64,000 nt of DNA. Origin: a virus. Lineage: Duplodnaviria > Heunggongvirae > Uroviricota > Caudoviricetes. The stretch lies in IMG/VR virus record IMGVR_UViG_3300042892_003817. One strand, 5' to 3'. Under the pieces are notes generated by a model. It searched no databases, had not been told where the DNA came from, and worked only from the letters and a program-made list of their open reading frames with translations. A program made the position numbers and the translations under genes. Below are positions 9,342 to 63,913 of this stretch, piece after piece. Position 1 is the first letter of the stretch. Each line of letters begins with the position of its first letter.

Positions 9342-9360
9342 TTATTTTTAATATATTTTA

Positions 9361-10903: not shown

Positions 10904-11106
10904 TACTTTGAACTTGAGTTATTATTTCTAAATAAAATTCCACATAGGATATTAATTCCTAATGCTTGCCAAAAGCCAATTGGATTAAATCCATCTGCTG
11001 CTCCTACTAAAGCGTTATTCCAAAGCCATTGTGTTGGCCATGCTAATAAAATCGCTACTACAACTAGCATTCCAAATGCTGCTAATACTATTCCTAATTT
11101 TTCCAT
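10903..11106 (-). CDS. hypothetical membrane protein (67 aa)
   Basis: ORF. Confidence 0.4.
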   Translation of the reverse strand: MEKLGIVLAAFGMLVVVAILLAWPTQWLWNNALVGAADGFNPIGFWQALGINILCGILFRNNNSSSK

Positions 11107-11108
11107 AA

Positions 11109-11351
11109 CTATAATTCGTTTTCTGGTGTTCCGGTTAATGAATCTACTTCTACGTATCTTGAATTGACTTGCTCTTTAAGAACCTCTCTAAGGTATTTTA
11201 CATTATCAACTCCTCCTACTCCTCTAATCGCTCTCTGAGGATCTTTATAGAGCTTATCATGAGTCTTTCCGTTCTTTTTAATTACTTGAATGTAATTTCC
11301 TTTTAAGTCTGCCATCAATTCCTTTGGTGTTTTTACTTTGCCTTCTGCCAT
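11109..11351 (-). CDS. hypothetical protein (80 aa)
   Basis: ORF. Confidence 0.45.
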   Translation of the reverse strand: MAEGKVKTPKELMADLKGNYIQVIKKNGKTHDKLYKDPQRAIRGVGGVDNVKYLREVLKEQVNSRYVEVDSLTGTPENEL

Positions 11352-11352
11352 T

Positions 11353-11592
11353 TTAGTTTATATAAATTAAATTTCCTTGTTCGTTTTCTATTTTAGTTAC
11401 TTCCATTTTCTTATCCATATAGTCTAGAATAAAACCTCCATGCATTTGGAAGTACATATTAAAGGCCTGATGAAAAGCTTCAAAGGGAGGAGTCATTCTA
11501 TCCTTATCCTTATGCTCTAGGTAGTATTGATAGAACCAGCCAAGGTCATATTGGCCAGTTCTTCTCATCTGTAGATATTTCTCTCTATCCAT
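11353..11592 (-). CDS. hypothetical protein (79 aa)
   Basis: ORF. Confidence 0.45.
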   Translation of the reverse strand: MDREKYLQMRRTGQYDLGWFYQYYLEHKDKDRMTPPFEAFHQAFNMYFQMHGGFILDYMDKKMEVTKIENEQGNLIYIN

Positions 11593-31124: not shown

Positions 31125-32759
31125 TTACATGAACTGAGAAGGATCGATTCCTGCTCCTTGTTCATCTTTTGGTTTTATACTTGTGATAACACACTCTGTG
31201 ATTAACATTGTTCCTGCAACTGATGCTGCATTCTCTAAAGCTAGTCTTGTTACTTTAGTTGGATCAATAATACCTTCCTCTAACATATCAACATACTCCC
31301 CTGTTCTTGGATTAAATCCAATCCATTTGTGATTGTCAAAGATGTAGTTTACTCTCTCTTCAATTACTTCTGAAGTCTCTCCTGCATTTGCTAAGATCTG
31401 TTTGAATGGCTTCTGAAGTGCTTTGATTATAATGTCAAATCCTTTTTCTTGATCTGGATGTTGAGCTACTAATGGATGCTCTGTTAAGTGGAAAGAAGCA
31501 TTTAGTAAAGCAATTCCTCCTCCAGGTAAAATACCTTCTTGTAAAGCTGCTTTAGTTGCATGAAGAGCATCATCTACTCTATCTTTTTTCTCTCTCATTT
31601 CAACCTCTGTATGACCTCCAACATGAATCATAGCTACTCCTCCGATAAGTTTTGCTAATCTGTCTTGTAAGATTTCAATCTCGTAAGGTGAAACTGTATT
31701 CTCGATTTGTTCTTTTAATTGCTCAATTCTCTCTGCAATAGCTTCTTCAGTTCCTTTACCATCTACAATGGTAGTATCATCTTTACCTACTGTTACTTTT
31801 CTTGAATTACCAAACCACTGTAAATCGAATTTGTCTAGCTTCATTCCTTTCTCCTCCGATACAACTGTACCTCCTGTTAGAGCTGCAATGTCTTCAAGCA
31901 TAGCTTTCTTCTTATCTCCAAATTCAGGAGCTTTAACTGCTACTACTCTAAGAATTCCTCTCATTTTGTTTACAACAAGTGTCGATAAAGCCTCTCCGTC
32001 AATATCATCTGCAATGATAAGTAAGTCTTTATTTTGTTGTGATACTGATTCCAATAAAGGAAGCATCTCTTTTACGTGCTGGATTCTTTTATCTGTGATA
32101 AGGATTAAAGGATTGTTCAATACTGAAGTCATAGTATTGTTATCTGTAACGAAGTAAGGTGACTTGTATCCTCTGTTGAATTGCATACCCTCTACAGTTT
32201 CGAGATAAGTCTCTCCTGTTTTAGATTCTTCAATAGTTACTAATCCATCTCTACCAACTTTATCCATTGCTGTTGCAATAAGATTTCCTACTTCTGGGTC
32301 ATTATTACCTGAGATTGTTGCTACTTGTTTGATTTGTTCTTCTTCTGTAACTTCTTTAGAGTACTTCTCTCTTAAGTATTCGACTACTGCTTTAGTGGCA
32401 ATATCGATTCCTCTTTTTACTTCTACTGCATTTGCATTTTGTAGCTCAGATAATCCTTGGCTATAAATTTCTCTTGCAAGTAATGTTGCTGTTGTAGTAC
32501 CATCTCCAGCCAATCTAGCTGATTCGATTGCTACTTGTTTTACAGCTTGTGCTCCAGTATTCTCAATTGGATCTTCCAATTCTACTTCTTTGGCTACTGT
32601 TACACCATCCTTTGTTGAGGTTGGATTACCTCCTTGTTGTTGAATAAATACATTCCTACCTGACGGTCCCAATGTACATACTACTGCGTCTGCTAGTTGG
32701 TTTACTCCTGATAGTAATTTCTCTCTAGCTTCTTTTGAAAAACTAATTTGTTTTGACAT
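31125..32759 (-). CDS. groEL: chaperonin GroEL (Cpn60, 544 aa)
   Basis: Full-length match to GroEL including the ATP-binding [10 protein letters not shown] region; lacks the GGM tail. Confidence 0.9.
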
Positions 32760-32761
32760 AA

Positions 32762-33067
32762 CTACTCTTGTGATTTTCTGATTGTTGCTAAAATTTCTCT
32801 GTCTGGAAGTATAAAGTATTCTTGACCTTCAAAGTCAATACGGATTGTTCCTATCTTAGGAATCAATACCACATCTCCTACACTGGCTTCTACTCTAATA
32901 AATTGTCCAAATTCAGACTGGCGTCCTGGACCTACGGAAACTACTTCACCCATTTCTGGCTTTTCTTTCCCCATATCCGGAATGATAATACTTCCGAATC
33001 TTTCTTCTCCTGATTCAACAGGCTTTACAATAACTCTGTCGCTGTTAGCTGATAACTCTTGTGACAT
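32762..33067 (-). CDS. groES: co-chaperonin GroES (Cpn10, 101 aa)
   Basis: Cpn10 fold sequence (IIIPD...GEVVSVGPG) directly upstream of groEL with a 2-nt gap. Confidence 0.85.
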   Translation of the reverse strand: MSQELSANSDRVIVKPVESGEERFGSIIIPDMGKEKPEMGEVVSVGPGRQSEFGQFIRVEASVGDVVLIPKIGTIRIDFEGQEYFILPDREILATIRKSQE

Positions 33068-33130: not shown

Positions 33131-35464
33131 CTAATGACCTTCTGCAAAGTTATTTGCTATCTGTGGTGGTGCCTTTAGAGTTACTCCCGGTAGTTGTGTT
33201 GTTAATTCCATCAACTCTTGAACGTAAGGCATAAACATTTCTGCTTGATCTTCTCTTACATTTATGATCAACTGGTCATGAATCTGAGCTTGTACTCTAC
33301 CGTCTATTCCTAACTCTTTTGCTTTTCTATTAATCTGAATTGCTGCTCTATTCACAACCGCTGCCGCTAAAGACTGTAACTGGTAGTTCAAGCAGTTGTT
33401 TAATCCATTTCGATAATCTCTATACATCTGCATTACAGGATCTTTTCCGTACTGCTGTTCAAGACTCTTTCTAAATCTCCAATCCAATACTTGATCTCCA
33501 AACTTTTCAAAGATCAATTTCACTTTTGGTAAGTGTCTGATTCGTCCTACTTTATTTTGGATATACCCTAGCCTTTTTACTTGCTCTCTAGAGTTAACTC
33601 TCCACTCTTTTAATTGAGGAAAACCATCTAGGTAACCTGCTACAAGAGTATCAGCTTCTTTCTGAGATATATTTAAAGTCTTTGCCAGAGCATATGCTTC
33701 CATTCCGTATGCAATTCCTAGAGAGTAAGCCTTAGCTTGATTTCTTTTTACTGGATCTAATTTCTTTAAGAAGATAGGAGATTTAGTATCAGGTGAAACA
33801 CCGTCTGGATATTTTACTTTATCTTGATCAAGCTTCTCAGTTCTAATAGCAACAGTAGAATAGAAATCCCATCCGTTGTTAAAAATCTCTTGAAGATTAA
33901 TATCACCTGCTACAGAAGCAAAGCAGTGAGGTTCTAGAGAAGTATAGTCATTATCGATTAACTTTCTTCCTTCTCCTGCAATTAAGAACTCTCTTACTAC
34001 ATTTGTATACTTTACAAGTAGCGGGGTATCTTCTCCTTCTTCTTTAGGCTTTGGTAATTGCTGAGCATCTGATCCATACCTTCCTGATACCGTACCATGC
34101 TGCTTGTAGTAAAAGTAGTATCTTCCGTCCTCTTGACCGTCTAGGAATCTATCGATGTAAGTTGATTTAATTTTTAGTAACTTATTATATGTTCTAAGGT
34201 TATTTGCCCATTCATAAGTCTTAGATAACTCCTCTAACATATCCATGTCAAATTGATCTTGACCTTTTTTAGTCTGAGTAAGAGGTTTGATTCCCATATA
34301 CTTGAATGCAATCTCACCTAAGTGTTTCTTAGATTGAATATTCAAATAGTCTCCTTCATTCTCTTCCTTCCACATCGACATAGAAATTCTAACAACTTCC
34401 ATTTCGTCTAGTAGGTTTAAGTCTCCTGTTAGTAGAAATTGTTTTATATTACTCTCTTCTAATTCGTCAATAGCTTTTTTAGTTAAAGAATACTTTCCAG
34501 TCTTTTCGCTTCTCTCTAAAGGAAGAGAGTGAAGCATAATTAAATTCTGTGCCCAGTTACCTTTGTGTGAAGGAGGGTAAGTATAAAGTGCTGTATCAAC
34601 TACCCATTCCTTTGCCTCTGGAATGCTTAGTATACTGTCAATTACTATCTTTTTATTCGATTGTAGGTCATTTGTAATATCATCTCTAGTCTTTTCTAGT
34701 AACGGAAGATTTAATGCTACTCCTATCTCTTCCATTGGAACAGTTACTTCTTTGTAAAGAGGCATTACTTCTTCTTCAAAGAAGAATTTCTCTAGTCCTT
34801 CTTCCTTTAATACTTTTAAGAAGTGATTACAAACTCTAAGGGTTAAATCCGTATCGGCTGCAGCATATTTGGAAAGAATTGCCATATCTGCTTTAAAGAT
34901 CTCGTAAAGATCTTTTGTAGTTGATCCTCCATTTGCTTTAATAGATTCTTTTAGCTCTACTTGCTCTTTGTTAGCTGCTTCTTCTACATTTAGTCCGATC
35001 TCTTTCTGAATAGAGATAGCTAATGCCTTTAGTCCAAACACTCCCATACCAGCTCCTTCTTCCTGTACTGTATGAACAAGGAGAGCTGTATCTACCCAAA
35101 GATCTTCTAATAAAGATACTCCGTAATAGTTCTTAGTAATTCGGCAGTCAAAAGAAGCATTGTGCATTACTAGTCTCTTACCCTTAAGCAGCGGGAGTAA
35201 CTTTTTAGTAATGTCATGTGCTCCTTTTCCGCCAATAATACATTCCTCTAATTGATTTGTTTCTGTATTCCATTTCTGAGTTGGAAGATAGAATCCTATT
35301 CCTTCTTCTCCTGATACGGACCATCCTACGATTCCATCTCTTCGGACATTTAATCCAGTTGTCTCAGTATCATAAGCAAGAACCTCTGACTGATTAATAT
35401 GCTCGATAAGAAGGTTGATAGTCTCGATACTATCGACGTGGTAATACTTTTTTTCTATTTGCAT
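33131..35464 (-). CDS. polA: family A DNA polymerase (PolA-like) with a 3'-5' exonuclease domain and no 5'-3' exonuclease domain (777 aa)
   Basis: Exo motifs YDTETTGL, HNASFD, YAAADTD; polymerase motifs DYTSLEPH (A), RNQAKAYSLGIAYG (B), QIHDQL (C). Confidence 0.9.
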   Translation of the reverse strand: MQIEKKYYHVDSIETINLLIEHINQSEVLAYDTETTGLNVRRDGIVGWSVSGEEGIGFYLPTQKWNTETNQLEECIIGGKGAHDITKKLLPLLKGKRLVMHNASFDCRITKNYYGVSLLEDLWVDTALLVHTVQEEGAGMGVFGLKALAISIQKEIGLNVEEAANKEQVELKESIKANGGSTTKDLYEIFKADMAILSKYAAADTDLTLRVCNHFLKVLKEEGLEKFFFEEEVMPLYKEVTVPMEEIGVALNLPLLEKTRDDITNDLQSNKKIVIDSILSIPEAKEWVVDTALYTYPPSHKGNWAQNLIMLHSLPLERSEKTGKYSLTKKAIDELEESNIKQFLLTGDLNLLDEMEVVRISMSMWKEENEGDYLNIQSKKHLGEIAFKYMGIKPLTQTKKGQDQFDMDMLEELSKTYEWANNLRTYNKLLKIKSTYIDRFLDGQEDGRYYFYYKQHGTVSGRYGSDAQQLPKPKEEGEDTPLLVKYTNVVREFLIAGEGRKLIDNDYTSLEPHCFASVAGDINLQEIFNNGWDFYSTVAIRTEKLDQDKVKYPDGVSPDTKSPIFLKKLDPVKRNQAKAYSLGIAYGMEAYALAKTLNISQKEADTLVAGYLDGFPQLKEWRVNSREQVKRLGYIQNKVGRIRHLPKVKLIFEKFGDQVLDWRFRKSLEQQYGKDPVMQMYRDYRNGLNNCLNYQLQSLAAAVVNRAAIQINRKAKELGIDGRVQAQIHDQLIINVREDQAEMFMPYVQELMELTTQLPGVTLKAPPQIANNFAEGH

Positions 35465-35987: not shown

Positions 35988-36257
35988 CTAAAATTCCCCG
36001 TAAAGGTCAAATTTTTCTGGCTCTGGAGGTGTCCAGGTAACTGTCTGAGTTCTTATGGCGTATAGTTCTCCTTTTAGAGGTTCTAACCTGTAAGCTCCTT
36101 TAAACTCTGTCGCTCTCATATAAGCTGATAGAGTTGGTACCAGTCCTTCAATTGTATGTAAGGGTGCTGATGGCCATTGTCCTTTCCAGTTATCTCCTGG
36201 TGGTGTTCTTAAGGCAATAAGCTCTAATACTTCTTCTTGTCTTGAGTTAGCTTCCAT
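35988..36257 (-). CDS. hypothetical protein (89 aa)
   Basis: ORF. Confidence 0.4.
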   Translation of the reverse strand: MEANSRQEEVLELIALRTPPGDNWKGQWPSAPLHTIEGLVPTLSAYMRATEFKGAYRLEPLKGELYAIRTQTVTWTPPEPEKFDLYGEF

Positions 36258-37183
36258 TACTGACGTAATGTTTTAGCCATTCTACAAGTAATATCTGTAA
36301 AGAATCCTGGGATTAATTTCTTATGGGAAGCTCTAATTGGATTAATATCCAATCCTCCTCTACGAGTATAAAGACAAGCTACCATTAATTCTTCTGGATT
36401 GTAAGCTTCTTTTAAGTGCATGTAGATCATTTCACAAATCTCTTCGTGGAAGTGACTTACTTGTCTGTGACTTACAATATATTTTGCTAATGATTCTAAA
36501 TCAGGAACAACTCCTGCTGTTGGTTTAATATGAATAAATACATCACCCCAGTCTGGTTGGTTTGTTACTCTACAATTTGATCTTAAAAGATTAGACTGTA
36601 TTTTTATTTCTCCAATTTCAAAGTCTTCAGATACTTCTTCTGACTGTAACTGTGTAGCGTCTGAATGGTAAGAAGTAAATTCAATTTTGTTTAAGTCAAC
36701 CAAAGCATCCAATGGTGCATATCCTTTAAAGGCATAGCTTGGAGAATGCTCTGATGTAAACATCTCTACCTGTACTTTTGTCTGTAGTAAGTCAGATAGG
36801 TCTTTCTTTACTCTTTCTTTTAGTAACTTAATACATTCATGATCTGTATCTCCCAATTGAGTCATATTGAATGAATTCAAATACAATTTAATTGATTTAG
36901 ACTCTACGTGAAGTTTTGAATCGGCTGGATACCAAATCTTTAACATTCCTACTACTGGTAATCCTTTTGTAGTGATTGCAGATACTTCGTATGCATTCCA
37001 AACATCTCCTCCAACAAATGGAAGGTTATTATCGTCAATTCCATACGCTTCTCTATTCAAGTAACGTGGAATTTCTACCAATAGACTTGGATCGTAAGTA
37101 TCGCTATATCCTGCTCCACCTACTTGTCCTAGATGCTTTCCTGCAATCTTTACAACTTCTGCTTGATTTAATTCTTGTGTCAT
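36257..37183 (-). CDS. queF: NADPH-dependent 7-cyano-7-deazaguanine reductase QueF, two-domain type II (308 aa)
   Basis: Collinear with E. coli QueF (YqcD): DTYDPSLL, ESKSIKLYLNSFN, CRVTNQPDWGDV, SHRQVSHFHEEICE, TRRGGLDINP. Confidence 0.8.
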   Translation of the reverse strand: MTQELNQAEVVKIAGKHLGQVGGAGYSDTYDPSLLVEIPRYLNREAYGIDDNNLPFVGGDVWNAYEVSAITTKGLPVVGMLKIWYPADSKLHVESKSIKLYLNSFNMTQLGDTDHECIKLLKERVKKDLSDLLQTKVQVEMFTSEHSPSYAFKGYAPLDALVDLNKIEFTSYHSDATQLQSEEVSEDFEIGEIKIQSNLLRSNCRVTNQPDWGDVFIHIKPTAGVVPDLESLAKYIVSHRQVSHFHEEICEMIYMHLKEAYNPEELMVACLYTRRGGLDINPIRASHKKLIPGFFTDITCRMAKTLRQ

Positions 37184-37184
37184 T

Positions 37185-37736
37185 TTATTTTATATAGTTT
37201 AATATTTGTTCAACTCTTTGATTAGGACTTCCTGTTACTGTTAAGTAATCTCCTCCAGCAAACTTAATTGACTTTAAGTTAATTTCAAACTGCTTATCAA
37301 TTGCTTCTCTCCATCCTTCATTTACACTCCTTACTCCATCATCTACAGAAGCAAATTCAATAGGGAAATAAATAAAATGTGTATATTGATCTTTAACTCT
37401 TAACCAAGTATCTAAGATGTATGTATAAGCACTATCGGATAAATTATCCATATAAGTAGAATAAACTAATAGATCTAAATAACATCTATCAAGTATTACA
37501 TCTTTAGTAGCTAATAATGCCTCTAAATGGAAAGAAGAAATAGCAAGCTGTGTTTCAGAAGTTCCTGCTTCATTAATAGGAAATCCATAACTACCAACCG
37601 TTCTTGTTGATTCATTTATAAAATCATACTCAGGTAATTTACTTTTAAGTAATTCGTATACTGTAGTCTTCCCTACTGATGATGCTCCTACTAATGCTAT
37701 TCTTTTCATAACTAATTTTTTAAAAAGTCTACCCAA
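37185..37736 (-). CDS. P-loop NTPase/kinase (AAA_28 / nucleoside-kinase-like, 183 aa)
   Basis: Walker A IALVGASSVGKTT; small single-domain kinase-like protein. Confidence 0.5.
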   Translation of the reverse strand: MGRLFKKLVMKRIALVGASSVGKTTVYELLKSKLPEYDFINESTRTVGSYGFPINEAGTSETQLAISSFHLEALLATKDVILDRCYLDLLVYSTYMDNLSDSAYTYILDTWLRVKDQYTHFIYFPIEFASVDDGVRSVNEGWREAIDKQFEINLKSIKFAGGDYLTVTGSPNQRVEQILNYIK

Positions 37737-38239
37737 AGACTTACTGATATACTATGTAAGATATGAAATAATTCTCCTATTTCCAACCCTTTTATAGAAA
37801 CTTGTCTCTGTAAAAGTATAGCTCCTTCATCCACTCCTTCTGTTACTCTATGAATAACACATCCAGAATGTTCTAATCCTAAGTCAAAAGCTTTTTGCTG
37901 AGGATCTTTTCCTTTTAGTTCTGGATACTGAGTTATAAGTCCTGGATGTCCATTATAGATTTCAAATCGATTACAAATACCTGGTGGCATAATCCTTAAC
38001 CATCCATGAAGAGTTACTAAAGCATTATCATACTGAGCCAATAGAGGAAATAGTTCTTCTTCTGAAGGCTTATTGTCTACGAAGATTAAGTGCTTATTTT
38101 CTAAAGCAGGATGAATCTTTCTAAGATGTTCTGGTCTTTCGTTTGTAATAATAAGGTCAGGCCATCTTCCTAGTAGCTTTGATACTTCTACGATCTCTGA
38201 TCCTGTTTGACTAAAGAATGCTATCCAAGGTCTATTCAT
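37712..38239 (-). CDS. formyltransferase (PurN/Fmt N-terminal-domain fold, 175 aa); candidate preQ1-DNA formyltransferase (DpdN-like)
   Basis: IAFFSQTGSE...ITNERPE...LHGWLRIMPPGICNRFEIYNGHPGLITQYPELKGKDP...GCVIHRVTEGVDEGAIL matches the formyl-transferase catalytic core. Confidence 0.55.
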   Translation of the reverse strand: MNRPWIAFFSQTGSEIVEVSKLLGRWPDLIITNERPEHLRKIHPALENKHLIFVDNKPSEEELFPLLAQYDNALVTLHGWLRIMPPGICNRFEIYNGHPGLITQYPELKGKDPQQKAFDLGLEHSGCVIHRVTEGVDEGAILLQRQVSIKGLEIGELFHILHSISVSLWVDFLKN

Positions 38240-38397
38240 GTGATATACTTATTATTCTATCCTCATTCATAAAGATAAAATTTCCTTTCACTCTTAAACT
38301 GTACGAAGGTTTTCCTCCTGAATTACTGTCTACTATTCCAAATACTTCGGCATCTATAATCTCATTATCGAGATTTATAATAACCATTTCCCCTATC

Positions 38398-39192
38398 TTA
38401 TACTTTGCGTCCATTTGCAAACCATCTGAATTTATGAATGTTCTGAAGAATCATATTCGTATCTTCCGGTACGTAGTTGATTAATTCAAATAACTTTTGA
38501 GACTCTTTTGACCATAATCCATCTGCTCTATACTCAACTCCTTTTATACCATGTACAACTGGATTAGAAGTATCTAAAGAATAGATCCATTTATAGTCTG
38601 AGTAGAAAGAAAACTCTTGAGGTAATCCACATCCCAATAGGTGATGCTTCTTCTCTTCGTTTATAACACCGTCTCTCAATAGATCTCCTAGTAGCTTAAC
38701 CCTTCCTAGCATCCAACTAACATACTTGTTAGGATGTGAAATAGTATTTGTATAGTACGAGTAGTCGAATGAAATTGCAATCATATCTACATTTGCAATC
38801 TTATCCATATACTCATAACAAGTCTTAATTTGACTGTAAGTCTTTCCTTGAACAACTCCTATTTTCTTTCCTGGAAGATTTTTATACTTGTTATTCCATT
38901 CTGTCATTTGCTGTACAGTCTTCTTTGCATCCTCTAAAGCATCCGGAACTATATACCAATCTGGCTTTAATTCTAATACCCAGCCTGCAAACTTCTCTGC
39001 ATCAAAAGCTTCTTCTAATTCAAAGATAGAATTATCTAAAATAATTTCTCTACCTGCTTCTTTAGCATCTTGAAACTGTTTTAAGTATTCTGGATCTTCT
39101 TCAAATAAATGCACTAATGCATAATCATAGTCAGTATACTTCTGTACTTCTTTAAAGATACTCTTCGGTGATTCGTGTGCTATCTTAATCAT
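38398..39192 (-). CDS. candidate DpdA (tRNA-guanine transglycosylase-like DNA 7-deazaguanine transglycosylase, 264 aa)
   Basis: Context inside the que cluster; HHLLGCGLPQEF resembles the TGT RYLMGVGKPED loop; predicted alpha/beta fold. Weak. Confidence 0.35.
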   Translation of the reverse strand: MIKIAHESPKSIFKEVQKYTDYDYALVHLFEEDPEYLKQFQDAKEAGREIILDNSIFELEEAFDAEKFAGWVLELKPDWYIVPDALEDAKKTVQQMTEWNNKYKNLPGKKIGVVQGKTYSQIKTCYEYMDKIANVDMIAISFDYSYYTNTISHPNKYVSWMLGRVKLLGDLLRDGVINEEKKHHLLGCGLPQEFSFYSDYKWIYSLDTSNPVVHGIKGVEYRADGLWSKESQKLFELINYVPEDTNMILQNIHKFRWFANGRKV

Positions 39193-39388
39193 TATCTTCT
39201 GGTGTTATATCTTGTAAATCTTCTACTAATCCTCCTAACTGTGCTTGTAATGTTTCCATAACTTCTGCCAGTTGACTATCGATAGACTTCTCAACTGCTT
39301 TATATGCCTCTGATAAAGGAATCATATCTATACCTAAAGTATCAATAAACACTTTATGCTTTTCTAAATGGTCTAGTGCTGCTTGCAT
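39185..39388 (-). CDS. hypothetical acidic protein (67 aa)
   Basis: ORF. Confidence 0.35.
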   Translation of the reverse strand: MQAALDHLEKHKVFIDTLGIDMIPLSEAYKAVEKSIDSQLAEVMETLQAQLGGLVEDLQDITPEDND

Positions 39389-39900
39389 TATTTAATTCTA
39401 TTAAATTTACTTAACTGCTCTTGAGTAAAAAACTGAGAAAGATCTGGTCGGAAGTAATTTACATTCTTCATTACTTTTCTATCTCTTGTTCTATAAACAA
39501 CGTAATACTCTCCAACTTTTTCGTAATGACACTCCTCACCTTGCTCACTCGATCTCTGAATGACAGTTGCTTTAGCGTCTTCTTCTGTTTGGCAAGCTTT
39601 TGATAGATTTGAAGCTTGAACTTCTTGATATGCTGGCCATATCTTATCCTTAAGGCCATGTAACATAGTACCGTTCCCAGTGGCAACATAAGTAATATCG
39701 CACAAAGCATCCAGAACCTCAACGATGTCTCCTGCTTCGCAAGCTTCTCTATATTCTTCCAATTCCTCAAGGATGAAATTGTATACAAATTCCCATTCTT
39801 TTCTTTCGGGGATAGTTGGTTCATAGTTATTAGGTTTACCCATTACGGCATTAAATTCCTCTACCTCATCAATAAAAGGTACTTTTGGATCTGTAATCAT
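39388..39900 (-). CDS. mazG: MazG-like nucleoside triphosphate pyrophosphohydrolase (170 aa)
   Basis: EELEEYREACEAGDIVEVLDALCDI (E-x2-E...E-x2-D MazG motif). Confidence 0.6.
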   Translation of the reverse strand: MITDPKVPFIDEVEEFNAVMGKPNNYEPTIPERKEWEFVYNFILEELEEYREACEAGDIVEVLDALCDITYVATGNGTMLHGLKDKIWPAYQEVQASNLSKACQTEEDAKATVIQRSSEQGEECHYEKVGEYYVVYRTRDRKVMKNVNYFRPDLSQFFTQEQLSKFNRIK

Positions 39901-39909
39901 AACTTTTTA

Positions 39910-39951
39910 CTTTTTTATTAATATAAGAAATTGGCTCCGAAGAGCCAACTT
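39910..39951 (-). promoter_or_regulatory. promoter module with an embedded GGCUC-UUCG-GAGCC hairpin (39933-39946)
   Basis: atataagaaattggctccgaagagccaact. Confidence 0.45.
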
Positions 39952-39952
39952 A

Positions 39953-40150
39953 TTATTCAATTACTTTAATAATTTTAGATTGATTAACTCCTACTACTGC
40001 GAAGTTAGACTCTCCTTCGAACTCTGTATAGATCTTTGCTTCAGCTTCTGTTGCTGAAATTGCATCTACTAAATAAAGTTCTTTTACTCTTTGAATACGA
40101 CCTCGGTCATTTTCGTGCTCCAATTGCACAGTTACTTGCCAATAATTCAT
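39953..40150 (-). CDS. hypothetical protein (65 aa)
   Basis: ORF. Confidence 0.4.
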   Translation of the reverse strand: MNYWQVTVQLEHENDRGRIQRVKELYLVDAISATEAEAKIYTEFEGESNFAVVGVNQSKIIKVIE

Positions 40151-40165
40151 AATGTTTGGTTTTAG

Positions 40166-40873
40166 TTATTTTTTTCCAAGTTTAATATTTGTATAGAATT
40201 CTGCTCTTGCTGATGCTTCATCTAAGAAACACCCTGTTAACTTTGCTGTTTGCATTGAAGCTCCCTGATGTTTAATCCCTCTACACGATACACAGTTATG
40301 TGTTGCTGAAATTGCTACTGCTACTCCTAGATTACCTTCACAGATTTTATCTACTGCATTATGAATTGCAACTGTTAACTGCTCTTGAATAGCTCCACGT
40401 CTAGCAAACTGCTCTACAATTCGATTTAATTTTGAAAGCCCAACTACCTTTCCATCTGCTGAAGGAACATAAGCTATACTTACCTCTCCTGAAATTGTTT
40501 GGTGGTGATGTGAGCACATTGAGGTAACTGGTATATTACTCTCTTGTACTATTCCATCATAACCATCAGAAGGGAATGCTGTAATTCTTGTTAGTGGTTC
40601 AAATCGACCTGCCCATAAATCGTTTACGTATGCTTTTGCAACTCTTTTAGGAGTATCAGATGAATTTGGATCATTCTGCCAATCACATCCTAAAGCTGAA
40701 AGGAATTGTCCGAAAGCTTCTGCTGCATCTTCAATGATGTGTTGCTTTTCTACTTCAGTTAATCTTGCTTCTGGACCTTCTGTTAGTTGTTTTTTTGCCA
40801 ATTGAGAGGAAATACCATTAGCGAATCCGGCTTGTACTAATTCTGTACCGTCGATAAATTTTTTATTTGACAT
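40166..40873 (-). CDS. folE: GTP cyclohydrolase I FolE (235 aa)
   Basis: MCSHHHQTISGEVSIAYVP parallels the FolE catalytic MCEHHLVPF..AYIP segment. Confidence 0.8.
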   Translation of the reverse strand: MSNKKFIDGTELVQAGFANGISSQLAKKQLTEGPEARLTEVEKQHIIEDAAEAFGQFLSALGCDWQNDPNSSDTPKRVAKAYVNDLWAGRFEPLTRITAFPSDGYDGIVQESNIPVTSMCSHHHQTISGEVSIAYVPSADGKVVGLSKLNRIVEQFARRGAIQEQLTVAIHNAVDKICEGNLGVAVAISATHNCVSCRGIKHQGASMQTAKLTGCFLDEASARAEFYTNIKLGKK

Positions 40874-40944
40874 ATAAGATTGTTTTTATGGAGGTTCTAC
40901 GACTCCGTTTTATTTAATATAACATTTTTTACTTTATCCTGCAA

Positions 40945-41340
40945 CTATTTTTTCAAATAATCTTGAATAGTTTCTGAGTCATTTCTTTCCCAAGGGTATA
41001 CAATCCACTCTGTTCCTACTTCTTTTGAGTAGAAGTCTGGAGTAAAGATTGCTGTTGGTTTGTAATGAAGCGTTGCAGTATACATTCCAATAGTATTTTT
41101 TAACGTCTCTCCTGTATCACAAATATCATCTACTACCAAAGTATCTTTATTTATTCTACTAACGTAAGGTATGTGGAGCTTGTGGGAGATCATTACTGCT
41201 GGTATTAATCCTCCTCTTTGAATACCTGTTATCGATTTAATCTCTGCTCCTGATGCTGCTATTGTATTTGCTAAATCTTCTACTAAGATGTTGATATCAT
41301 CCCAGCTTAAATAAACTTTATTTCCTATTTTTAGTGCCAT
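40945..41340 (-). CDS. gpt: xanthine-guanine phosphoribosyltransferase-like type I PRTase (131 aa)
   Basis: QRGGLIPAVMIS, VVDDICDTGETL (PRPP motif) and WIVYPWE align with E. coli Gpt SRGGLVPGALLA, VIDDLVDTGGT, WIEQPWD. Confidence 0.75.
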   Translation of the reverse strand: MALKIGNKVYLSWDDINILVEDLANTIAASGAEIKSITGIQRGGLIPAVMISHKLHIPYVSRINKDTLVVDDICDTGETLKNTIGMYTATLHYKPTAIFTPDFYSKEVGTEWIVYPWERNDSETIQDYLKK

Positions 41341-41342
41341 AA

Positions 41343-41927
41343 CTATTTAATTTTTACTTGATAATCTACAAACGTTGCTTTCTTTGGTGCTTCATTTAGA
41401 AAGTAAAAAGCAATTGTCTTACTCTTAGTTTTGATAATCTTATAGAAAGCCGTAGGAATAGCTGCACCTGCCGGAACTCGTCTGGGATTTTTATCAAATA
41501 CTATTTTTATTTCAACGTTGACTGGTCCTTCTGAAAAGGCTAAAAGTCTTTCATAGTCTTCTAATAGTCTCCAATGAACTCTATTTAGTCTTTCATTTTG
41601 AAGAGTACAGTTTAGGTATGAGAATGTTTTAAATAACATTTCTCTAGTACAGTTAAAGTCAGCTGCTGGTGCACAATGTCCTTTGTCGTAGATATTGAAT
41701 GCATAGTCTTTTTCATCTGAGGTATGAATTGTTTTATCTTTATAGAAATCCATTCCTTTTCTAGATGCTCCTACTCCAGTGCACAGTACTTGGTACTTTA
41801 CCCACAATGGTTGCTCTAATGTCTCTGAATACATTACCTCGTATATGTCTGTCTTTACATAAACGCTATCTCTTAACTGTCCAAACCCTAATAACGGAAG
41901 TAAGAGTAATAATAAAAACTTCTTCAT
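41343..41927 (-). CDS. secreted Endonuclease_NS-family (DNA/RNA non-specific) nuclease (194 aa)
   Basis: Signal peptide MKKFLLLLLLPLLGFGQL; YDKGHCAPAAD matches the DRGH-x-AP active-site motif. Confidence 0.5.
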   Translation of the reverse strand: MKKFLLLLLLPLLGFGQLRDSVYVKTDIYEVMYSETLEQPLWVKYQVLCTGVGASRKGMDFYKDKTIHTSDEKDYAFNIYDKGHCAPAADFNCTREMLFKTFSYLNCTLQNERLNRVHWRLLEDYERLLAFSEGPVNVEIKIVFDKNPRRVPAGAAIPTAFYKIIKTKSKTIAFYFLNEAPKKATFVDYQVKIK

Positions 41928-41928
41928 A

Positions 41929-42222
41929 CTATACCTTTGCGATTGTAATTCCTTCCACGTCTACAATTTGTAGTTGTGAGATAACTTCGTCTCCTGATAC
42001 TTCTGGATCTGTTGACTCCAATACGTAATTTACTAATTCTTCGATAGATACTTTATCTTTAAATCCTGTCTTACCTGAGTCACTTGGTATTAATACTAGC
42101 TCTAAATTAAGGTCTTGATTGAATTGTAACTTATAATCCCAGATGTAAAGGCCATCTGCTTTTGGATATGATTTTGATAGTTCTCTATCCCCTGCTAAAT
42201 CGATTAGATCTTTTAATGTCAT
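41929..42222 (-). CDS. hypothetical protein (97 aa)
   Basis: ORF. Confidence 0.4.
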   Translation of the reverse strand: MTLKDLIDLAGDRELSKSYPKADGLYIWDYKLQFNQDLNLELVLIPSDSGKTGFKDKVSIEELVNYVLESTDPEVSGDEVISQLQIVDVEGITIAKV

Positions 42223-42234
42223 AACTTTGTTTTT

Positions 42235-42456
42235 TTATTTAATTGTATATTTAGTTTTTCCGTCTGGTGATTGTGCTGATATTTCTCCGTTTGCTAGAAC
42301 TGTTAGTTCTAAATCAAACTCTTCCTTTAAAAGTCTTTTTACTGTTGCTGCTTCAAGCCCTCTACTTTTCCATAGTGTATGAAATACTGTTAGTACTTCA
42401 AACTCTGTTGCTCTTTTTACTGCCATCTTACACTTCTCTTTGGTCTTCAAATGCAA
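42235..42456 (-). CDS. hypothetical protein (73 aa)
   Basis: ORF. Confidence 0.4.
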   Translation of the reverse strand: MHLKTKEKCKMAVKRATEFEVLTVFHTLWKSRGLEAATVKRLLKEEFDLELTVLANGEISAQSPDGKTKYTIK

Positions 42457-43201
42457 TGATGTGAGGTCTCCAGGTCAATCTATAACCGTTATCTCTAACC
42501 CAATCAAACATTTTTGGATATGATTTGAATAAAGCTTCTCTTGAATCTCCTGCTGGCATGAACCATACTTTATCTTCTGGTATGTCTAGCATTTTAATAC
42601 AATTCATAATCTCTTTTAATGCTTCTTGATCCTCTCCATCCCATACCGGTTTTAAATGGTAGTCTGAATGATAAGAGATTGATTTGGATATTGCATCGTA
42701 GTTTAATCTTAGCTTGTTATGCTGTTTAATCATTTTCTCATCTGTAATGTCTCCTTGAGGTGTTGCAATGCCAACCTTAGGGACAGAATTACTGAACTTA
42801 GGGGAGATTGATAATAGATTAATTGGGTAATCTGTCTCAAGAAAATGACTTCCTTCGGTCTCAATCGTAATGAAAATATTTCTTTCATGTGCAAAATGTG
42901 TTAATTCGTTTACTAATGCTGGATGCATTGTTGGTGATCCTCCTGTTAGCATCATCTCTGTGATGTGGGGATTGGCATCATACATGTTAATAATATCTTG
43001 AAAACTGATATGTCCTTTTTCAGGATGTATACTTGTGTACCAAGAATCGCACCATCCACCATCACCAAACCAACATCTGTGAGTACAGCCTGTTGTTCTG
43101 ATTACTACGGTTGGATAACCTGCTCTACTTCCTTCTGATTGTACTGCTGTATAAAGCTCTACAATGGGAAGTGTTTTGTTATAATCTTCTATTCTTTTCA
43201 T
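42428..43201 (-). CDS. queE: 7-carboxy-7-deazaguanine synthase QueE (radical SAM, 257 aa)
   Basis: LYTAVQSEGSRAGYPTVVIRTTGC-x3-C cluster-binding segment and MLTGGSP motif. Confidence 0.8.
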   Translation of the reverse strand: MKRIEDYNKTLPIVELYTAVQSEGSRAGYPTVVIRTTGCTHRCWFGDGGWCDSWYTSIHPEKGHISFQDIINMYDANPHITEMMLTGGSPTMHPALVNELTHFAHERNIFITIETEGSHFLETDYPINLLSISPKFSNSVPKVGIATPQGDITDEKMIKQHNKLRLNYDAISKSISYHSDYHLKPVWDGEDQEALKEIMNCIKMLDIPEDKVWFMPAGDSREALFKSYPKMFDWVRDNGYRLTWRPHIIAFEDQREV

Positions 43202-43202
43202 C

Positions 43203-43397
43203 TTAATATAAATTGTATTGACAATATTTTATGTAAAATTCAGTTCTTCCTATTTCTTGCAGCTCTTCTACATACTCCCATACTTCAGAAGCATATTTTT
43301 CCTTTCCATACAAATCATCTCCGTACTTTAGAGTTTCAAAGTCCCATCCTTTATCGAATGCTTTTGTTGCTAGGTAAATTATTTCACTCAGTTTCAT
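43203..43397 (-). CDS. hypothetical protein (64 aa)
   Basis: ORF. Confidence 0.4.
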   Translation of the reverse strand: MKLSEIIYLATKAFDKGWDFETLKYGDDLYGKEKYASEVWEYVEELQEIGRTEFYIKYCQYNLY

Positions 43398-43514
43398 CTT
43401 CCTGTTATTTGTTTTATATACCTTTCTACCGCTACTACTTTCTGTCTTAGATCTAATTTAGAGTCTATTACATTTTGTAAGTACTGATGAAACTCGTCCA
43501 TTGTTAAGTTAGGC

Positions 43515-43976
43515 TTACTCACCATAAGATGCTGAGTTCCTTTCATGTTCGTAAACTTCTACCTTAGTAGCTCTTACTCTACTGTTTGTTTCTTCAAGTA
43601 AAAATGTATTGATTTTTAAATGTAAGTATTCTGCAAATCGTTCACATCCTGTAGCAGGAAGTATTCTTAACTGTATAACGCCGTCGTTATGCATTTGTTT
43701 AAATGTATCCATATAAGGATCATCCTCTGCTACAATAGTTGTATGATCTAATAGGTAATCGAAAAATGCTTTTGGAGAATATCCTTCGATGTTTCCTTTA
43801 GCTCTTTTCATTCCTCCGAAGTCCCATACCCAGTTTCTTTCGTCTAGTTCTCCTTCGAACCATACTCGGAATGATACGGCATAGCCGTGAAGAAATCTGC
43901 AATGTGTACCCTCTGCTTTCCATTGTCGAAAGCATGCTGAGTAGCCGTCAAATAGTTTTGTTGCTTGAAATTTCAT
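43515..43976 (-). CDS. queD: 6-carboxy-5,6,7,8-tetrahydropterin synthase QueD (PTPS fold, 153 aa)
   Basis: FSACFRQW...HCRFLHGYAVSFRVWFEGELDERNWVWDFGGMK parallels the PTPS/QueD core. Confidence 0.75.
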   Translation of the reverse strand: MKFQATKLFDGYSACFRQWKAEGTHCRFLHGYAVSFRVWFEGELDERNWVWDFGGMKRAKGNIEGYSPKAFFDYLLDHTTIVAEDDPYMDTFKQMHNDGVIQLRILPATGCERFAEYLHLKINTFLLEETNSRVRATKVEVYEHERNSASYGE

Positions 43977-44138
43977 TTGTTAAAATATTAAATTGTAAAT
44001 TGTTGTCCATATAGCAATTGTGATTAGAGCAAGCCCTATCCATACAAATGCTTTTGTGTAGTCTTTCTTAAATCTCTTCTTAGGCTTTATACCTAAAGCT
44101 TCTTTTACGTGATCGTTCACCTCTCTCATAACTCTAAT

Positions 44139-44529: not shown

Positions 44530-46200
44530 TTATGATCCTACTCTAGTTAAAAAGAGCTTGTTCATACGGAACCATCCCATGTACTCTCTTCCTTGATCAA
44601 AATAATCTTCCCAATCCTTCTCTGCTTTTAAATCTCGGACTAATCCTTTTTCTGCAAACTTCTCCCACCAGTAGTCTTTTGTTTGACAGTTTATATGACC
44701 TATTCCTTGCTGTCCTGGATGTGCTGCTGTGAAGATTAAAGTACCTCCTGGTTTAAGGTTTTCGTATAACTTTTCAACAATACTGTCGTTGTGTTCTGTC
44801 TCTATGTGCTCGGCTACTTCCAGGCAGATAATTAGTTCTGATTTATGGTTTAGGTCAAAGATACTCTTTTTAAAGAGAAAGTCCTGATCTTCTACTACAT
44901 CGTTAATATCGTACCCAATAGCATCAATTTTTTCTTTTCTTAAGGACCTTACATAAGTCCCACTCCCGCAACCTACATCGACTACTTTTTTAGGATTGTA
45001 ATACTTTTTAATCCACTTAGCTAGATTATCTGCAAATGGCTTTTCTTCTTCCTCCATATTTGTATAATTGAAAGCATCAGTCTTCCCTCTAGGAATATCT
45101 GTTTGATACCATCCTTCTCCTTCATAAACATTTAAAATATCTTTAAAATATTTTTCGTACATAGGAGCTACATTCTCTAATGAAAACTTTTCTCCATACT
45201 CTCTACAAGTCTTGTAATCTATTTCTCCGTTGTTAATTTTTATAGTTGCCTGCAAGTAATCATCAAACGTTCTACATCTGTAACCAGTTACTCCGTTTAT
45301 ATTATTCTCTGCAAAGGCTCCCCAGTCTGAGGTAATTGTTGGTGTTCCTGATAGTAAATTTTCTATTTGAACTCCTCCAAATGGTTCAACATATTGTGAA
45401 GGTAGGAAGCATCCTTTTGCACTCTTCATCAGTTCTTTTCTCTTTTCGGTTCCAGCATACCCTACAAACTCTACATGAGGAGGAAACTTTCCATCCTTAT
45501 AAGGTCCATCGGCGTCAATCTGTCCTGCTATCTTTAATTTATACCCTAAGTGTTCAGTAACCTGGATTGCTATATTAACTCCTTTTCCGTCAAAGACTCT
45601 TCCTAAATAAAGAAAGTAATCTTCTTTTTTATCGCTAAATTCAAAATCAGAGAGGTCGAAGTAGTTTGGAATTACTACTTCGTAGTTTTTCATATCGCAA
45701 TAATTCACTCCCATCAGTCCGTAGTATGCATGGTAGATTGCATAAGATTCAAATACTTTCCAATTTGCCCAATGCCCTCCTGCATAGCCTATTCCTGGTT
45801 CAACAGTTATTAAATCTGGATGTCCGTCACATACCGGCCTTACTCCTGACCCCCAGAATGGTAAAATGAAATCATTCTTCTGTTTTCTCTTTCCTATTTC
45901 CTTTATAGCATTTTTATAGAAGGTTTGATAGGCTTCATCCTCTACATTATATTTAAAGAATTTAGATTTATAGTCATGAGTACCGTATACTTTTTTCCAT
46001 ACCTTATTGGTGATAACTGTTACGTTTTCCGCATATGGAGCGTCGCTCTCCTCATGTCCGTAATGGTAGATAGTATGCCCTCTTTCCCCCATCATCTTAC
46101 AGAATTTCCAAGCCTTTTGTGTATAAGCACATGCTACAAATTCTCTATTAGTGATTGTATGAGGAAGTCCTAATACGTGGAATGTAAATTTATTATTCAT
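44530..46200 (-). CDS. bifunctional GT-B glycosyltransferase / class I SAM-dependent methyltransferase fusion (556 aa)
   Basis: N-terminal region with EPFGGVQIENLLSGTPTITSDWGAFAENNINGVTG (GT4 motif); C-terminal VVDVGCGSGTYV methyltransferase motif I. Confidence 0.6.
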   Translation of the reverse strand: MNNKFTFHVLGLPHTITNREFVACAYTQKAWKFCKMMGERGHTIYHYGHEESDAPYAENVTVITNKVWKKVYGTHDYKSKFFKYNVEDEAYQTFYKNAIKEIGKRKQKNDFILPFWGSGVRPVCDGHPDLITVEPGIGYAGGHWANWKVFESYAIYHAYYGLMGVNYCDMKNYEVVIPNYFDLSDFEFSDKKEDYFLYLGRVFDGKGVNIAIQVTEHLGYKLKIAGQIDADGPYKDGKFPPHVEFVGYAGTEKRKELMKSAKGCFLPSQYVEPFGGVQIENLLSGTPTITSDWGAFAENNINGVTGYRCRTFDDYLQATIKINNGEIDYKTCREYGEKFSLENVAPMYEKYFKDILNVYEGEGWYQTDIPRGKTDAFNYTNMEEEEKPFADNLAKWIKKYYNPKKVVDVGCGSGTYVRSLRKEKIDAIGYDINDVVEDQDFLFKKSIFDLNHKSELIICLEVAEHIETEHNDSIVEKLYENLKPGGTLIFTAAHPGQQGIGHINCQTKDYWWEKFAEKGLVRDLKAEKDWEDYFDQGREYMGWFRMNKLFLTRVGS

Positions 46201-63022: not shown

Positions 63023-63913
63023 TTAATTGTTATGGTTATCTAATACTTTTGTTACCTCTGCTACCACATGTTCCCATGTTACTGGTCCTGTTTCGTCTGC
63101 ATAAGGAGCTGGATCTTTTCTTCCTAATTTAATAAATGCTTCTACTCTTTCAACTGATGAAGCTGATTTATAATCTGAGTACCATTCTCCAAATTTAGTT
63201 CTAAGTGTTTCTTCTACTCTTGAGTTACTTTCAGGTCCAGGTATCCAAATTGGTTTATAAGATGTGTTAGTTCTTTTATAAACTTCATCAAAATTTAATC
63301 CTAATTCTTCACATAATACTTCTCCGTCTTGTAAGATAGTAAATTTATCTCCTTTCAAGTAAGGTGTAAAATACCCTACATTTTCAGCTCCCCAATTTCC
63401 TATTCTAAATGCATAATCATCAGCATCACGGAATTCTTGTCTACAATCAGGATAAATTGCATGATCTCCAGCGTGAATACCTAAAGCAATACTACAAAAT
63501 TCACCTGTTCTTTGAGCAACTGATAAAGCTATTGCTTGAGTAATAGAAGCAAATATTTTGTTTCTGTTAGGAACAACTGTTGCTTTCATATTATCTTCTG
63601 CATAGTGACCTTCTGGTACATCTTCACCTCCAGTTACTAAAGCTGAATCTAGTAAGTCAACTAATCCGTCTAGTTTGATTTGGCGATAGTTTACTTTTGG
63701 GTAAAATATGTAATTACTTCCATTAGCTTCAATAGAATCGTTTGAATTTATATAATTCACCAATGATTGAGCTCTATCTAGCTCTACTCTGTGTTTTTGA
63801 CCATAGTCAAATGAGATAGCTGTTACACTATCATACTCTTTTAGACATCTAAGTAATAATGTACTTGAGTCCATTCCTCCACTTAAGGATACTACAACAT
63901 GTTTTTTAGACAT
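63023..63913 (-). CDS. queC: 7-cyano-7-deazaguanine synthase QueC (PP-loop ATPase) with a C-terminal extension (296 aa)
   Basis: VVVSLSGGMDSSTLL PP-loop SGGxDS motif and QueC-like core. Confidence 0.75.
   Translation of the reverse strand: MSKKHVVVSLSGGMDSSTLLLRCLKEYDSVTAISFDYGQKHRVELDRAQSLVNYINSNDSIEANGSNYIFYPKVNYRQIKLDGLVDLLDSALVTGGEDVPEGHYAEDNMKATVVPNRNKIFASITQAIALSVAQRTGEFCSIALGIHAGDHAIYPDCRQEFRDADDYAFRIGNWGAENVGYFTPYLKGDKFTILQDGEVLCEELGLNFDEVYKRTNTSYKPIWIPGPESNSRVEETLRTKFGEWYSDYKSASSVERVEAFIKLGRKDPAPYADETGPVTWEHVVAEVTKVLDNHNN

Follow-up and report, generated by a model that had tools for sequence, protein, structure and literature searches.

The closest described relatives of the locus reported here are the Flavobacterium phages vB_FspM_immuto_2-6A, 3-5A and 13-6C. 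Mass spectrometry found no dG in the DNA of immuto 2-6A, in which 100% of G was replaced by formyl-dPreQ1 (fdPreQ1) (PMC10516641). The pathway was assigned to FolE, QueD, QueE, QueC, QueF, DpdA3 and the formyltransferase DpdN, and complete modification was reported for the DpdA3 phages CP220, phiST and immuto (PMC10516641). A phosphoribosyltransferase (PRTase) and a kinase encoded in the same cluster go unmentioned in that paper. Here we analysed the corresponding cluster in IMG/VR virus record IMGVR_UViG_3300042892_003817, a 64,000-nucleotide stretch of DNA from a virus of the Caudoviricetes, which is called the window below.

Positions 36000-44000 of the window showed 86% nucleotide identity to the three Flavobacterium phages at 85% query coverage. 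The genes and their order were the same as in the annotated immuto record, the window DpdA3 was 96% identical to that of immuto 2-6A, and the expected product is likewise fdPreQ1 in place of all G. The PRTase, kinase and pyrophosphohydrolase genes are annotated in GenBank for immuto but were given no role in the published model. The original prediction placed a Gpt-like PRTase, a P-loop kinase-like protein and a MazG protein inside the deazaguanine cluster. Pfam matches bore this out, and the three genes lie in one tight operon on the minus strand, where they had been predicted. MazG, DpdA3, DpdN, the kinase and QueF are spaced by gaps or overlaps of 1-8 nt, and the stretch from QueD to QueF looks like one operon. 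Dozens of related metagenomic phage contigs have these genes in an identical order, so the presence of the three is not due to chance.

Comparison with about 190 other phage loci supports a specific and recurrent link of a kinase and a nucleoside triphosphate (NTP) pyrophosphohydrolase to DpdA3; both are absent from DpdA1 clusters apart from an NTPase in 2 of 70. This comparative evidence considerably strengthens the idea that the modified DNA may arise by a nucleotide-level route. The genes of the window on which the comparison centres are as follows.

40945..41340, minus strand: mini 6-oxopurine (Gpt-like) PRTase, immediately upstream of FolE; PF00156 match with RGG, DDxxDTG, Lys and W..V.PWE motifs
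40166..40873, minus strand: FolE (GTP cyclohydrolase I), first step from GTP; Pfam GTP_cyclohydroI 2.6e-44
39388..39900, minus strand: MazG/PRA-PH-type all-alpha NTP pyrophosphohydrolase, candidate dGTP remover; PRA-PH and PHROG 671 matches, acidic motif
38398..39192, minus strand: DpdA3, predicted minimal transglycosylase of the tRNA-guanine transglycosylase (TGT) superfamily
37712..38239, minus strand: DpdN, PurN-like formyltransferase (to formyl-preQ1); Formyl_trans_N 2.3e-15, best NCBIfam match PurN, name from PMC10516641
37185..37709, minus strand: P-loop protein of nucleoside/nucleotide-kinase fold (AAA_28), 174 aa, ATG at 37709
36257..37183, minus strand: bimodular QueF (preQ0 to preQ1 reductase); Pfam QueF_N 8.3e-34 and QueF 7.7e-21

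Kinases and pyrophosphohydrolases encoded with DpdA3

We fetched 80 immuto-like IMG/VR loci around DpdA3 (48-98% DpdA3 identity). As a control, 70 IMG/VR loci were fetched with the same flanks around DpdA1 of the Queuovirinae type, which performs partial, motif-specific and clearly post-replicative modification (15-30%). A further set consisted of 25 Ahp1-type loci (L167-L191) plus Aeromonas phage Ahp1_CNU-2021 (L160). A family-agnostic scan recorded any small open reading frame (ORF) on the same strand with an N-terminal Walker A motif at no more than 5 kb from DpdA.

The P-loop protein of the window (IALVGASSVGKTT) scored 45.5 bits against Pfam AAA_28 (cut-off 27). We took the ATG at 37709 as its start rather than the TTG at 37736, because most of the listed homologues are 174 aa long; this ATG is two bases past the DpdN stop codon. 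Walker A, a DR(x) motif and LID arginines are all present in the protein, which has a P-loop kinase fold; the structures that its model matched were all small-molecule nucleoside/nucleotide kinases, and none had a ParB-like or motor ATPase fold. The immuto homologue is labelled "thymidylate kinase" in GenBank. This name is unsupported, as the window protein reached only 16.4 bits against Pfam Thymidylate_kin (cut-off 27) and had no NCBIfam kinase match.

The kinase lies beside DpdA3 in all 73 of the 80 immuto-like loci whose flank reaches its position, and the DpdA3-DpdN-kinase-QueF block is conserved across these loci. None of the kinase families was found in the DpdA1 control loci (0/70). 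The family-agnostic scan gave a similar result, with a small Walker-A ORF within 5 kb in 71/80 DpdA3 loci vs 1/70 DpdA1 loci.

Kinases also adjoin DpdA3 in more distant phages. By tblastn, the family of the window kinase was found immediately downstream of a DpdA3 homologue in CP220, CP21, CPt10 and related Campylobacter phages. In CP220 this gene is gp057 (AAA_28), and the gene immediately upstream of DpdA3, gp055 (L005 7862-8893), encodes an HD-domain phosphohydrolase fused to an AAA_33 kinase domain. The CP220 block of HD-kinase, DpdA3 and kinase lies some 9 kb from QueD, and the PRTase is some 110 kb away from the block. In phiST, CGPG_00066 abuts DpdA3 and encodes an AAA_18 P-loop kinase-like protein, described in 2023 as having no homologues in other deazaguanine phages (PMC10516641). 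Chryseobacterium phage MA9V-3 has an AAA_18 kinase directly upstream of a distant DpdA3 (hhalign 99.9%). In Aeromonas phage Ahp1_CNU-2021, a distant DpdA3 (hhalign 97%) is followed directly by a T4 gp1-type dNMP kinase (PF21448, 64 bits) and then by a DCD/dUTPase-like gene. The AAA_28, AAA_18 and DNMK proteins have no detectable homology beyond the P-loop, which argues that different kinases were recruited independently to the same position. The protein encoded upstream of a distant DpdA-like gene in a Bacillus phage, BSTP12_039, has only the P-loop in common with the window kinase.

In two contigs the kinase is joined to DpdL, a QueD paralogue proposed to decarboxylate 7-carboxy-7-deazaguanine (CDG). 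Single ORFs directly upstream of a phiST-type DpdA3 (L164 7030-7983 and L165 4279-5265) contain DpdL and an AAA_18 kinase; both domains were significant by phmmer, and the Pfam AAA_18 match was below threshold. These fusions could be artefacts of assembly or ORF calling, yet they occur in two different contigs. As read from these ORFs, the fusion would tie base tailoring to a phosphorylatable substrate.

The MazG-like protein of the window scored 40.1 bits against Pfam PRA-PH (cut-off 21.3) and matched PHROG 671, "nucleotide pyrophosphohydrolase", at 1.3e-28. Its metal-binding motif, E45-E46-x-E48-E49 ... E61-x-x-D64, was read from the translation. Its sole sequence match to a solved structure was DR2231, at an E-value of 0.22. 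An NTP phosphohydrolase is encoded in 70/80 DpdA3 loci (MazG/PRA-PH in 51, a DCD/dUTPase-like gene within the cluster in 17, MazG and dUTPase in 2). Ten loci had no match; most of them are cut off on the side in question, L070 and L085 being exceptions. MazG/PRA-PH of the window type was found in 51/80 DpdA3 loci vs 0/70 DpdA1 loci, and any NTP pyrophosphohydrolase match in 2/70 of the latter. Of the 25 Ahp1-type loci, 23 have a core of DpdL-like gene, DpdA3 and, directly after it, a DCD/dUTPase-like gene; the other two are truncated. The phiST MazG gene is two genes from DpdA3, and the MazG/dUTPase-like gene of this phage was mentioned only in passing (PMC10516641). Counting the HD domain of CP220, NTP phosphohydrolases of four different folds are found near DpdA3.

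Taken over at least five lineages and set against the DpdA1 control, this test of gene content and synteny showed that a candidate destroyer of a canonical dNTP and a kinase are encoded with DpdA3. The three published phages with 100% replacement (immuto, phiST and CP220) all encode a PRTase, at least one small kinase and an NTP phosphohydrolase, so the three functions do co-occur with que genes in other phages, which had been suggested as a check. The earlier idea that the kinase and MazG hint at a nucleotide-level route gains support, since both are tied to DpdA3, the model is of a kinase fold and the DpdA1 controls are nearly empty.

A shortened phosphoribosyltransferase next to FolE

The PRTase of the window is 131 aa long and carries VVDDICDTGETL and WIVYPWE. 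It scored 30.4 bits against Pfam PF00156 (cut-off 26.3), and its closest solved structures are 6-oxopurine PRTases: Sulfolobus GpT-2 (4z1o, 1.9e-11), GpT-1, P. horikoshii 1vdm and E. coli xanthine-guanine PRTase (XGPRT, also Gpt; 1a95, 1.4e-6). VVDDICDTG and QRGG align with XGPRT D88-G94 and R37-G39 and are kept in 68 phage homologues, and HYKP and WIVYPWE align with XGPRT AKP and WIEQPWD (K115, W134). In the alignment of XGPRT with the 68 phage sequences, the pyrophosphate (PPi) loop RGG, the phosphoribosyl pyrophosphate (PRPP) loop DDxxD(T/S)G, the 6-oxo-binding Lys and the stacking Trp (W..V.PWE) are conserved; the window PRTase shares these four elements with XGPRT and with the archaeal enzymes 4z1o, 4trb and 1vdm. 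The base-binding Lys is lost in some divergent PRTase homologues at DpdA3 loci (L081, L087).

However, compared with 4z1o, 4trb and XGPRT, about 25-28 residues are missing between residues 63 and 64 of the window PRTase, at the hairpin of flexible catalytic loop II. Against the NCBIfam xanthine-PRTase equivalog PRK09177 it scored only 57.6 bits (cut-off 138). By this score the protein is a xanthine-PRTase homologue and not an equivalog. The loop II deletion is shared by PRTases fused to FolE, and the loop is kept in the phiST PRTase.

The PRTase adjoins FolE in 39 DpdA3 loci, with no fusion of the two in this set. Among the DpdA1 loci (L090-L159), it is fused to FolE in 35 of the 65 that bear FolE. 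In GenBank records of DpdA1-type phages, the "GTP cyclohydrolase I" is 297-307 aa long and its first ~115 residues are a loop-less PRTase; examples are Stenotrophomonas phage ytsc_ply2008005c, Vibrio phages 1.207.B and VpKK5, Sphingomonas phage MMDA13 and several Pseudomonas phages (fusion ORFs include L002 5754-6647 and L003 6007-6930). Literature searches found no published description of a PRTase-FolE fusion. Within 10 kb of DpdA3, the PRTase is absent from 34/80 DpdA3 loci. Other arrangements also occur. The PRTase adjoins QueD in 12 Ahp1-type loci, lies beside a DNMK-like kinase and the large subunit of ribonucleotide reductase (RNR) in phiST, and is near a radical-SAM gene in CP220, where it was found with the phiST PRTase as query and missed by tblastn with that of the window.

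These arrangements bear on the original prediction that the PRTase turns a preQ0 or preQ1 base into its nucleoside monophosphate (NMP), which they do not favour: the window PRTase adjoins FolE and not the kinase or DpdA3, and about half of the DpdA1 phages have its loop-less form fused to FolE. A route through nucleotides cannot account for the sequence-specific modification of 15-30% in these phages, and the FolE-fused PRTase speaks against such a step. Since the free base is what DpdA1 phages put into DNA, a PRTase consuming preQ0 would be counter-productive in them. One guanine is freed per exchange and one GTP is spent per preQ0, which makes guanine + PRPP to GMP the simplest common function of these PRTases. 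We infer that the PRTase would make GMP in this way, clear a competing substrate of the transglycosylase and refill the substrate pool of FolE. Salvage of guanine to feed FolE had been offered as the alternative in the original prediction, and it fits the adjacency and fusions.

A precedent for the preQ0-type reaction exists. TubE joins PRPP to CDG, and its cluster has FolE, QueD and QueE homologues (PMC6112128). The TubE/ToyH systems of tubercidin and toyocamycin (PMC6112128) thus resemble the window in encoding a purine-type PRTase together with these enzymes. TubE is, by description, a 194-aa CDG-specific enzyme, whereas the window PRTase has 131 aa and no flexible loop, and the latter groups with the FolE-fused domains of phages that insert the free base into DNA.

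DpdA3, tailoring enzymes and neighbouring genes

DpdA3 is 264 aa long, vs 413 aa for bacterial DpdA. It has only two cysteines (C125, C188) and none past the last barrel strand, and the zinc-binding subdomain (CxCxxC...H), which aids polynucleotide binding in TGT, is not present. A TGT-type TIM barrel was found by fold search, on which its membership in the TGT superfamily rests; a 4-sequence profile gave no sequence-level match to solved TGT or DpdA structures. LDN(S), PD, HLLG and (S)xD(T/S) are invariant in the four DpdA3 sequences and align with DSG, LD, HGFG and VDSS of DpdA1, but at an hhalign probability of 0.7%. DpdA3 and DpdA1 are both acidic (pI 5.2-6.1), so charge as a proxy for DNA binding does not separate them.

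In the bacterial Dpd system (DpdA, DpdB and DpdC), DpdA is powered by the ATPase DpdB. In comparison to bacterial DpdA, DpdA3 is about 150 residues shorter and lacks the cysteines of the zinc site. The fold of its partner is that of a nucleotide kinase and not ParB-like, and modification is 100% in DpdA3 phages vs <0.1% in the bacterial system.

DpdA3 is fused to DpdN in P0413 and P0437 (PF00551 at the C-terminus). Other long forms have a GNAT-like C-terminal tail (P0441, by eye), a 317-aa N-terminal domain (P0363) or homing-endonuclease insertions. Such fusions and extensions hint at further acyl derivatives of dPreQ1. In one divergent cluster (L077), a 2OG-Fe(II) oxygenase and a DUF6445 protein (8978-9583 and 10803-11468) flank DpdA3 and may be extra tailoring enzymes. 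In the Ahp1 clade (L160, L167-L191), which includes a T4-like Aeromonas phage, the core often occurs with QueD, QueE, FolE and PRTase, all of them labelled hypothetical; phages of this clade may have 7-deazaguanine (dDG-type) genomes.

The remaining genes of the window considered here are as follows.

63023..63913, minus strand: QueC (preQ0 synthase), about 19 kb from the main cluster; Pfam QueC 6.3e-34
43515..43976, minus strand: QueD (6-carboxytetrahydropterin synthase); Pfam PTPS 5.4e-15, immuto homologue annotated QueD
42428..43201, minus strand: QueE (7-carboxy-7-deazaguanine synthase, radical SAM); Pfam Radical_SAM 33.1 bits, immuto homologue annotated QueE
41343..41927, minus strand: non-specific (NS) DNA/RNA endonuclease; Pfam Endonuclease_NS 5.9e-25, signal-peptide-like N-terminus MKKFLLLLLLPLLGFGQ
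39953..40150, minus strand: 65-aa small ORF, DUF4494-like per immuto annotation, in only 18/80 related loci
39185..39388, minus strand: 67-aa ORF between MazG and DpdA3; no Pfam/PHROG match, homologous small gene annotated in immuto
38232..38420, minus strand: 62-aa ORF between DpdA3 and DpdN; no family match
33131..35464, minus strand: family A DNA polymerase, presumed user of the modified dNTP, about 1.7 kb downstream of the operon

In most related loci the family A DNA polymerase is 3-6 kb from DpdA3. The window adds two genes at positions where immuto 2-6A has none. One is the NS endonuclease, which in related loci is 2.8 kb upstream or 1.9 kb downstream of DpdA3, or absent. It is inserted between the PRTase and the upstream genes and is probably outside the deazaguanine pathway; we dropped it as a supplier of dGMP from host DNA in view of its signal-peptide-like start and its shifts of position from locus to locus. 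The other is a 556-aa fusion of a group-1 glycosyltransferase and a SAM methyltransferase (44530-46200, minus strand) immediately beyond QueD, which could act on DNA or on a surface glycan. Just past the DNA polymerase, the window encodes phage GroEL (544 aa) and GroES (101 aa) (31125-33067, minus strand).

Proposed pathway and alternative explanations

From these gene associations we propose a pathway in which the MazG-type pyrophosphohydrolase would hydrolyse dGTP, keep G out of phage DNA and possibly supply dGMP. In other DpdA3 phages a dUTPase/DCD-fold or HD-domain enzyme would take its place. DpdA3, a TGT barrel without the zinc subdomain, would exchange guanine for the deazaguanine base on a free guanine deoxynucleotide or deoxynucleoside. 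DpdN would formylate the aminomethyl group, the kinase would phosphorylate the modified nucleotide toward the triphosphate, and the family A polymerase would incorporate it. The mini-PRTase would not be the entry step. It would convert the released guanine and PRPP to GMP, removing a competing exchange substrate and refilling the GTP spent by FolE.

That the operon would replace all dG with formyl-dPreQ1, and do so mostly in the nucleotide pool, with DpdA3 as exchanger and the PRTase recycling guanine, is a tentative conclusion to which we give nearly even weight. Somewhat more tentatively still, DpdA3 may be the first TGT-superfamily enzyme to exchange a base on a free guanine deoxynucleotide or deoxynucleoside, and with a pyrophosphohydrolase that destroys dGTP and an obligatory kinase it may make up a pre-replicative pathway that had gone unrecognised.

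There are precedents for such a pathway. The T4 hydroxymethyl-dC pathway uses the gp56 dCTPase, the gp42 dCMP hydroxymethylase and the gp1 dNMP kinase, and the Z-genome pathway uses MazZ, PurZ and DatZ. By analogy, the proposed pathway would follow the same logic, in which a dNTP destroyer, remaking of the base at the monophosphate level and a kinase lead to 100% replacement; the Aeromonas Ahp1 DpdA3 lineage has a kinase of the T4 gp1 family. The proposed base changer differs, being a TGT-superfamily transglycosylase and not a homologue of thymidylate synthase or PurA. Complete replacement of dT by dU also relies on non-orthologous enzymes that destroy the canonical nucleotide (PMC12697855). 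Together with this logic, three observations fit a nucleotide-pool pathway: 100% replacement is found only in DpdA3 phages, free dADG nucleoside occurs in CP220-infected cells (Crippen et al. 2019, as reported by papers citing it), and DpdA3 expressed alone in E. coli could not be shown to modify DNA (PMC10516641).

Several points weigh against this pathway. The best structural match of the DpdA3 barrel is the DNA insertase DpdA, with only 226 of the 413 DpdA residues aligned. To our knowledge, all TGT-family enzymes that act on nucleic acid take a polynucleotide as substrate. Large phages commonly carry MazG, dUTPase/DCD and small kinases as housekeeping genes. Members of the AAA_28 kinase family are also found in Streptomyces phages that lack que genes in the vicinity (L007 8049-8618 of Samisti12 and ~89 related records; ~29% identity, phages of ~130 kb, a MazG gene 5 kb upstream), so the family is not restricted to deazaguanine phages. 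Most Ahp1-type loci had no kinase within their short flanks, and there was no DpdA3-kinase fusion in the best 150 of 2256 DpdA3 family representatives. A flexible loop is usually needed for catalysis by type I PRTases, and the activity of the window PRTase is uncertain because this loop is missing. The DpdA3 and DpdA1 sets differ in phage type and genome size. Because loci of one set are related to each other, a handful of lineages and kinase families, rather than the raw counts, make up the independent evidence. Finally, the immuto authors judged all deazaguanine DNA modifications to be post-replicative (PMC10516641), a conclusion that the new associations contradict.

In the explanation as published, which is purely post-replicative, DpdA3 would exchange each G once the DNA is finished. 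The PRTase and kinase would then convert guanine to GMP and GDP, and the resulting GTP would go to FolE and sustain the flux needed for 100% replacement; the NTPase would serve pool housekeeping or host shut-off. The nearest fold to DpdA3 and the judgement of the immuto authors agree with it, and so does the stoichiometry of one guanine freed per GTP used. The PRTase-FolE fusions provide a salvage link in the clearly post-replicative DpdA1 phages, and MazG, dUTPase and kinases are widespread in phages with unmodified DNA. However, the kinase follows DpdA3 and not the PRTase or FolE, as the distance of the CP220 block from the PRTase illustrates. One of the recruited kinases is of the T4 gp1 type, a deoxynucleotide kinase, and the DpdL-kinase fusions are hard to square with a GMP kinase. 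Destruction of dGTP would have no purpose in this explanation, yet near DpdA3 NTPases of four folds are found again and again, and DpdA3 could not be shown to modify DNA in E. coli. We consider it unlikely on balance.

A second alternative is the entry step of the original prediction. Here a TubE/ToyH-like PRTase would join preQ1 (or CDG/preQ0) to PRPP, the kinase would make the diphosphate, the phage ribonucleotide reductase would reduce it, the polymerase would incorporate the triphosphate, and DpdA3 would only mop up residual G. TubE provides a biochemical precedent (PMC6112128), and the immuto genome encodes NrdA and NrdB. The presence of a PRTase in all three phages with 100% replacement, its place beside the DNMK-like kinase and RNR in phiST and its adjacency to QueD in Ahp1-type loci would also suit this route. 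Against it, the window PRTase is of the loop-less type fused to FolE in post-replicative DpdA1 phages and adjoins FolE, not the kinase. The PRTase is missing near DpdA3 in 34 of the 80 loci, whereas the kinase is never missing. The route would also fill the RNA precursor pool with deazaguanine NTPs and leave the universally conserved DpdA3 with no essential role. Base exchange by DpdA3, acting on a guanine deoxynucleotide or deoxynucleoside in free form, is therefore a likelier first step than entry through the PRTase, and we regard this second alternative as improbable.

It is very improbable that the P-loop protein is a DpdB-like ATPase cofactor of DNA transglycosylation and not a kinase: its strict pairing with DpdA3 would suit this role, but its model matches only small-molecule nucleoside/nucleotide kinases and no ParB-like or motor ATPase fold, its counterparts elsewhere are unrelated kinase families that include a bona fide dNMP-kinase family, and DpdL, the fusion partner of the kinase in two contigs, is a small-molecule T-fold enzyme.

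Parts of the proposed pathway are already known. The gene cluster and its product are published, and the pre-replicative idea was aired in 2019 for Campylobacter phages. Hutinet et al. 2019 mentioned that use of a modified dGTP by the polymerase had been "proposed for Campylobacter phages"; this was set aside in 2023. Incorporation of the modified nucleotide by a polymerase, as first suggested for the window, is thus not a new idea, though the kinase and NTPase associations lend it support. The literature searched on phage deazaguanine systems discusses neither the PRTase nor the kinase, in agreement with the original prediction that they are not part of described phage deazaguanine systems. 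The association of DpdA3 with a kinase and an NTPase, the DpdL-kinase fusion, the PRTase-FolE fusion and the resulting pathway were absent from the literature searched, and the searches found no published nucleotide-level route for DpdA3.

The PRTase-FolE fusion points to guanine recycling as a general trait of phage deazaguanine systems. Complete replacement by post-replicative base exchange would be unusual, and the associations reported here yield direct tests on enzymes and metabolites. If the proposed pathway is true, it would be a new type of reaction for the TGT superfamily and would provide enzymes for making 7-deaza-dGTP analogues, compounds with uses in sequencing and synthetic biology. 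It would also be the fourth independent case in which a canonical dNTP is destroyed, rebuilt at the monophosphate level and phosphorylated again, and it would explain why 100% replacement of G is confined to DpdA3 phages.

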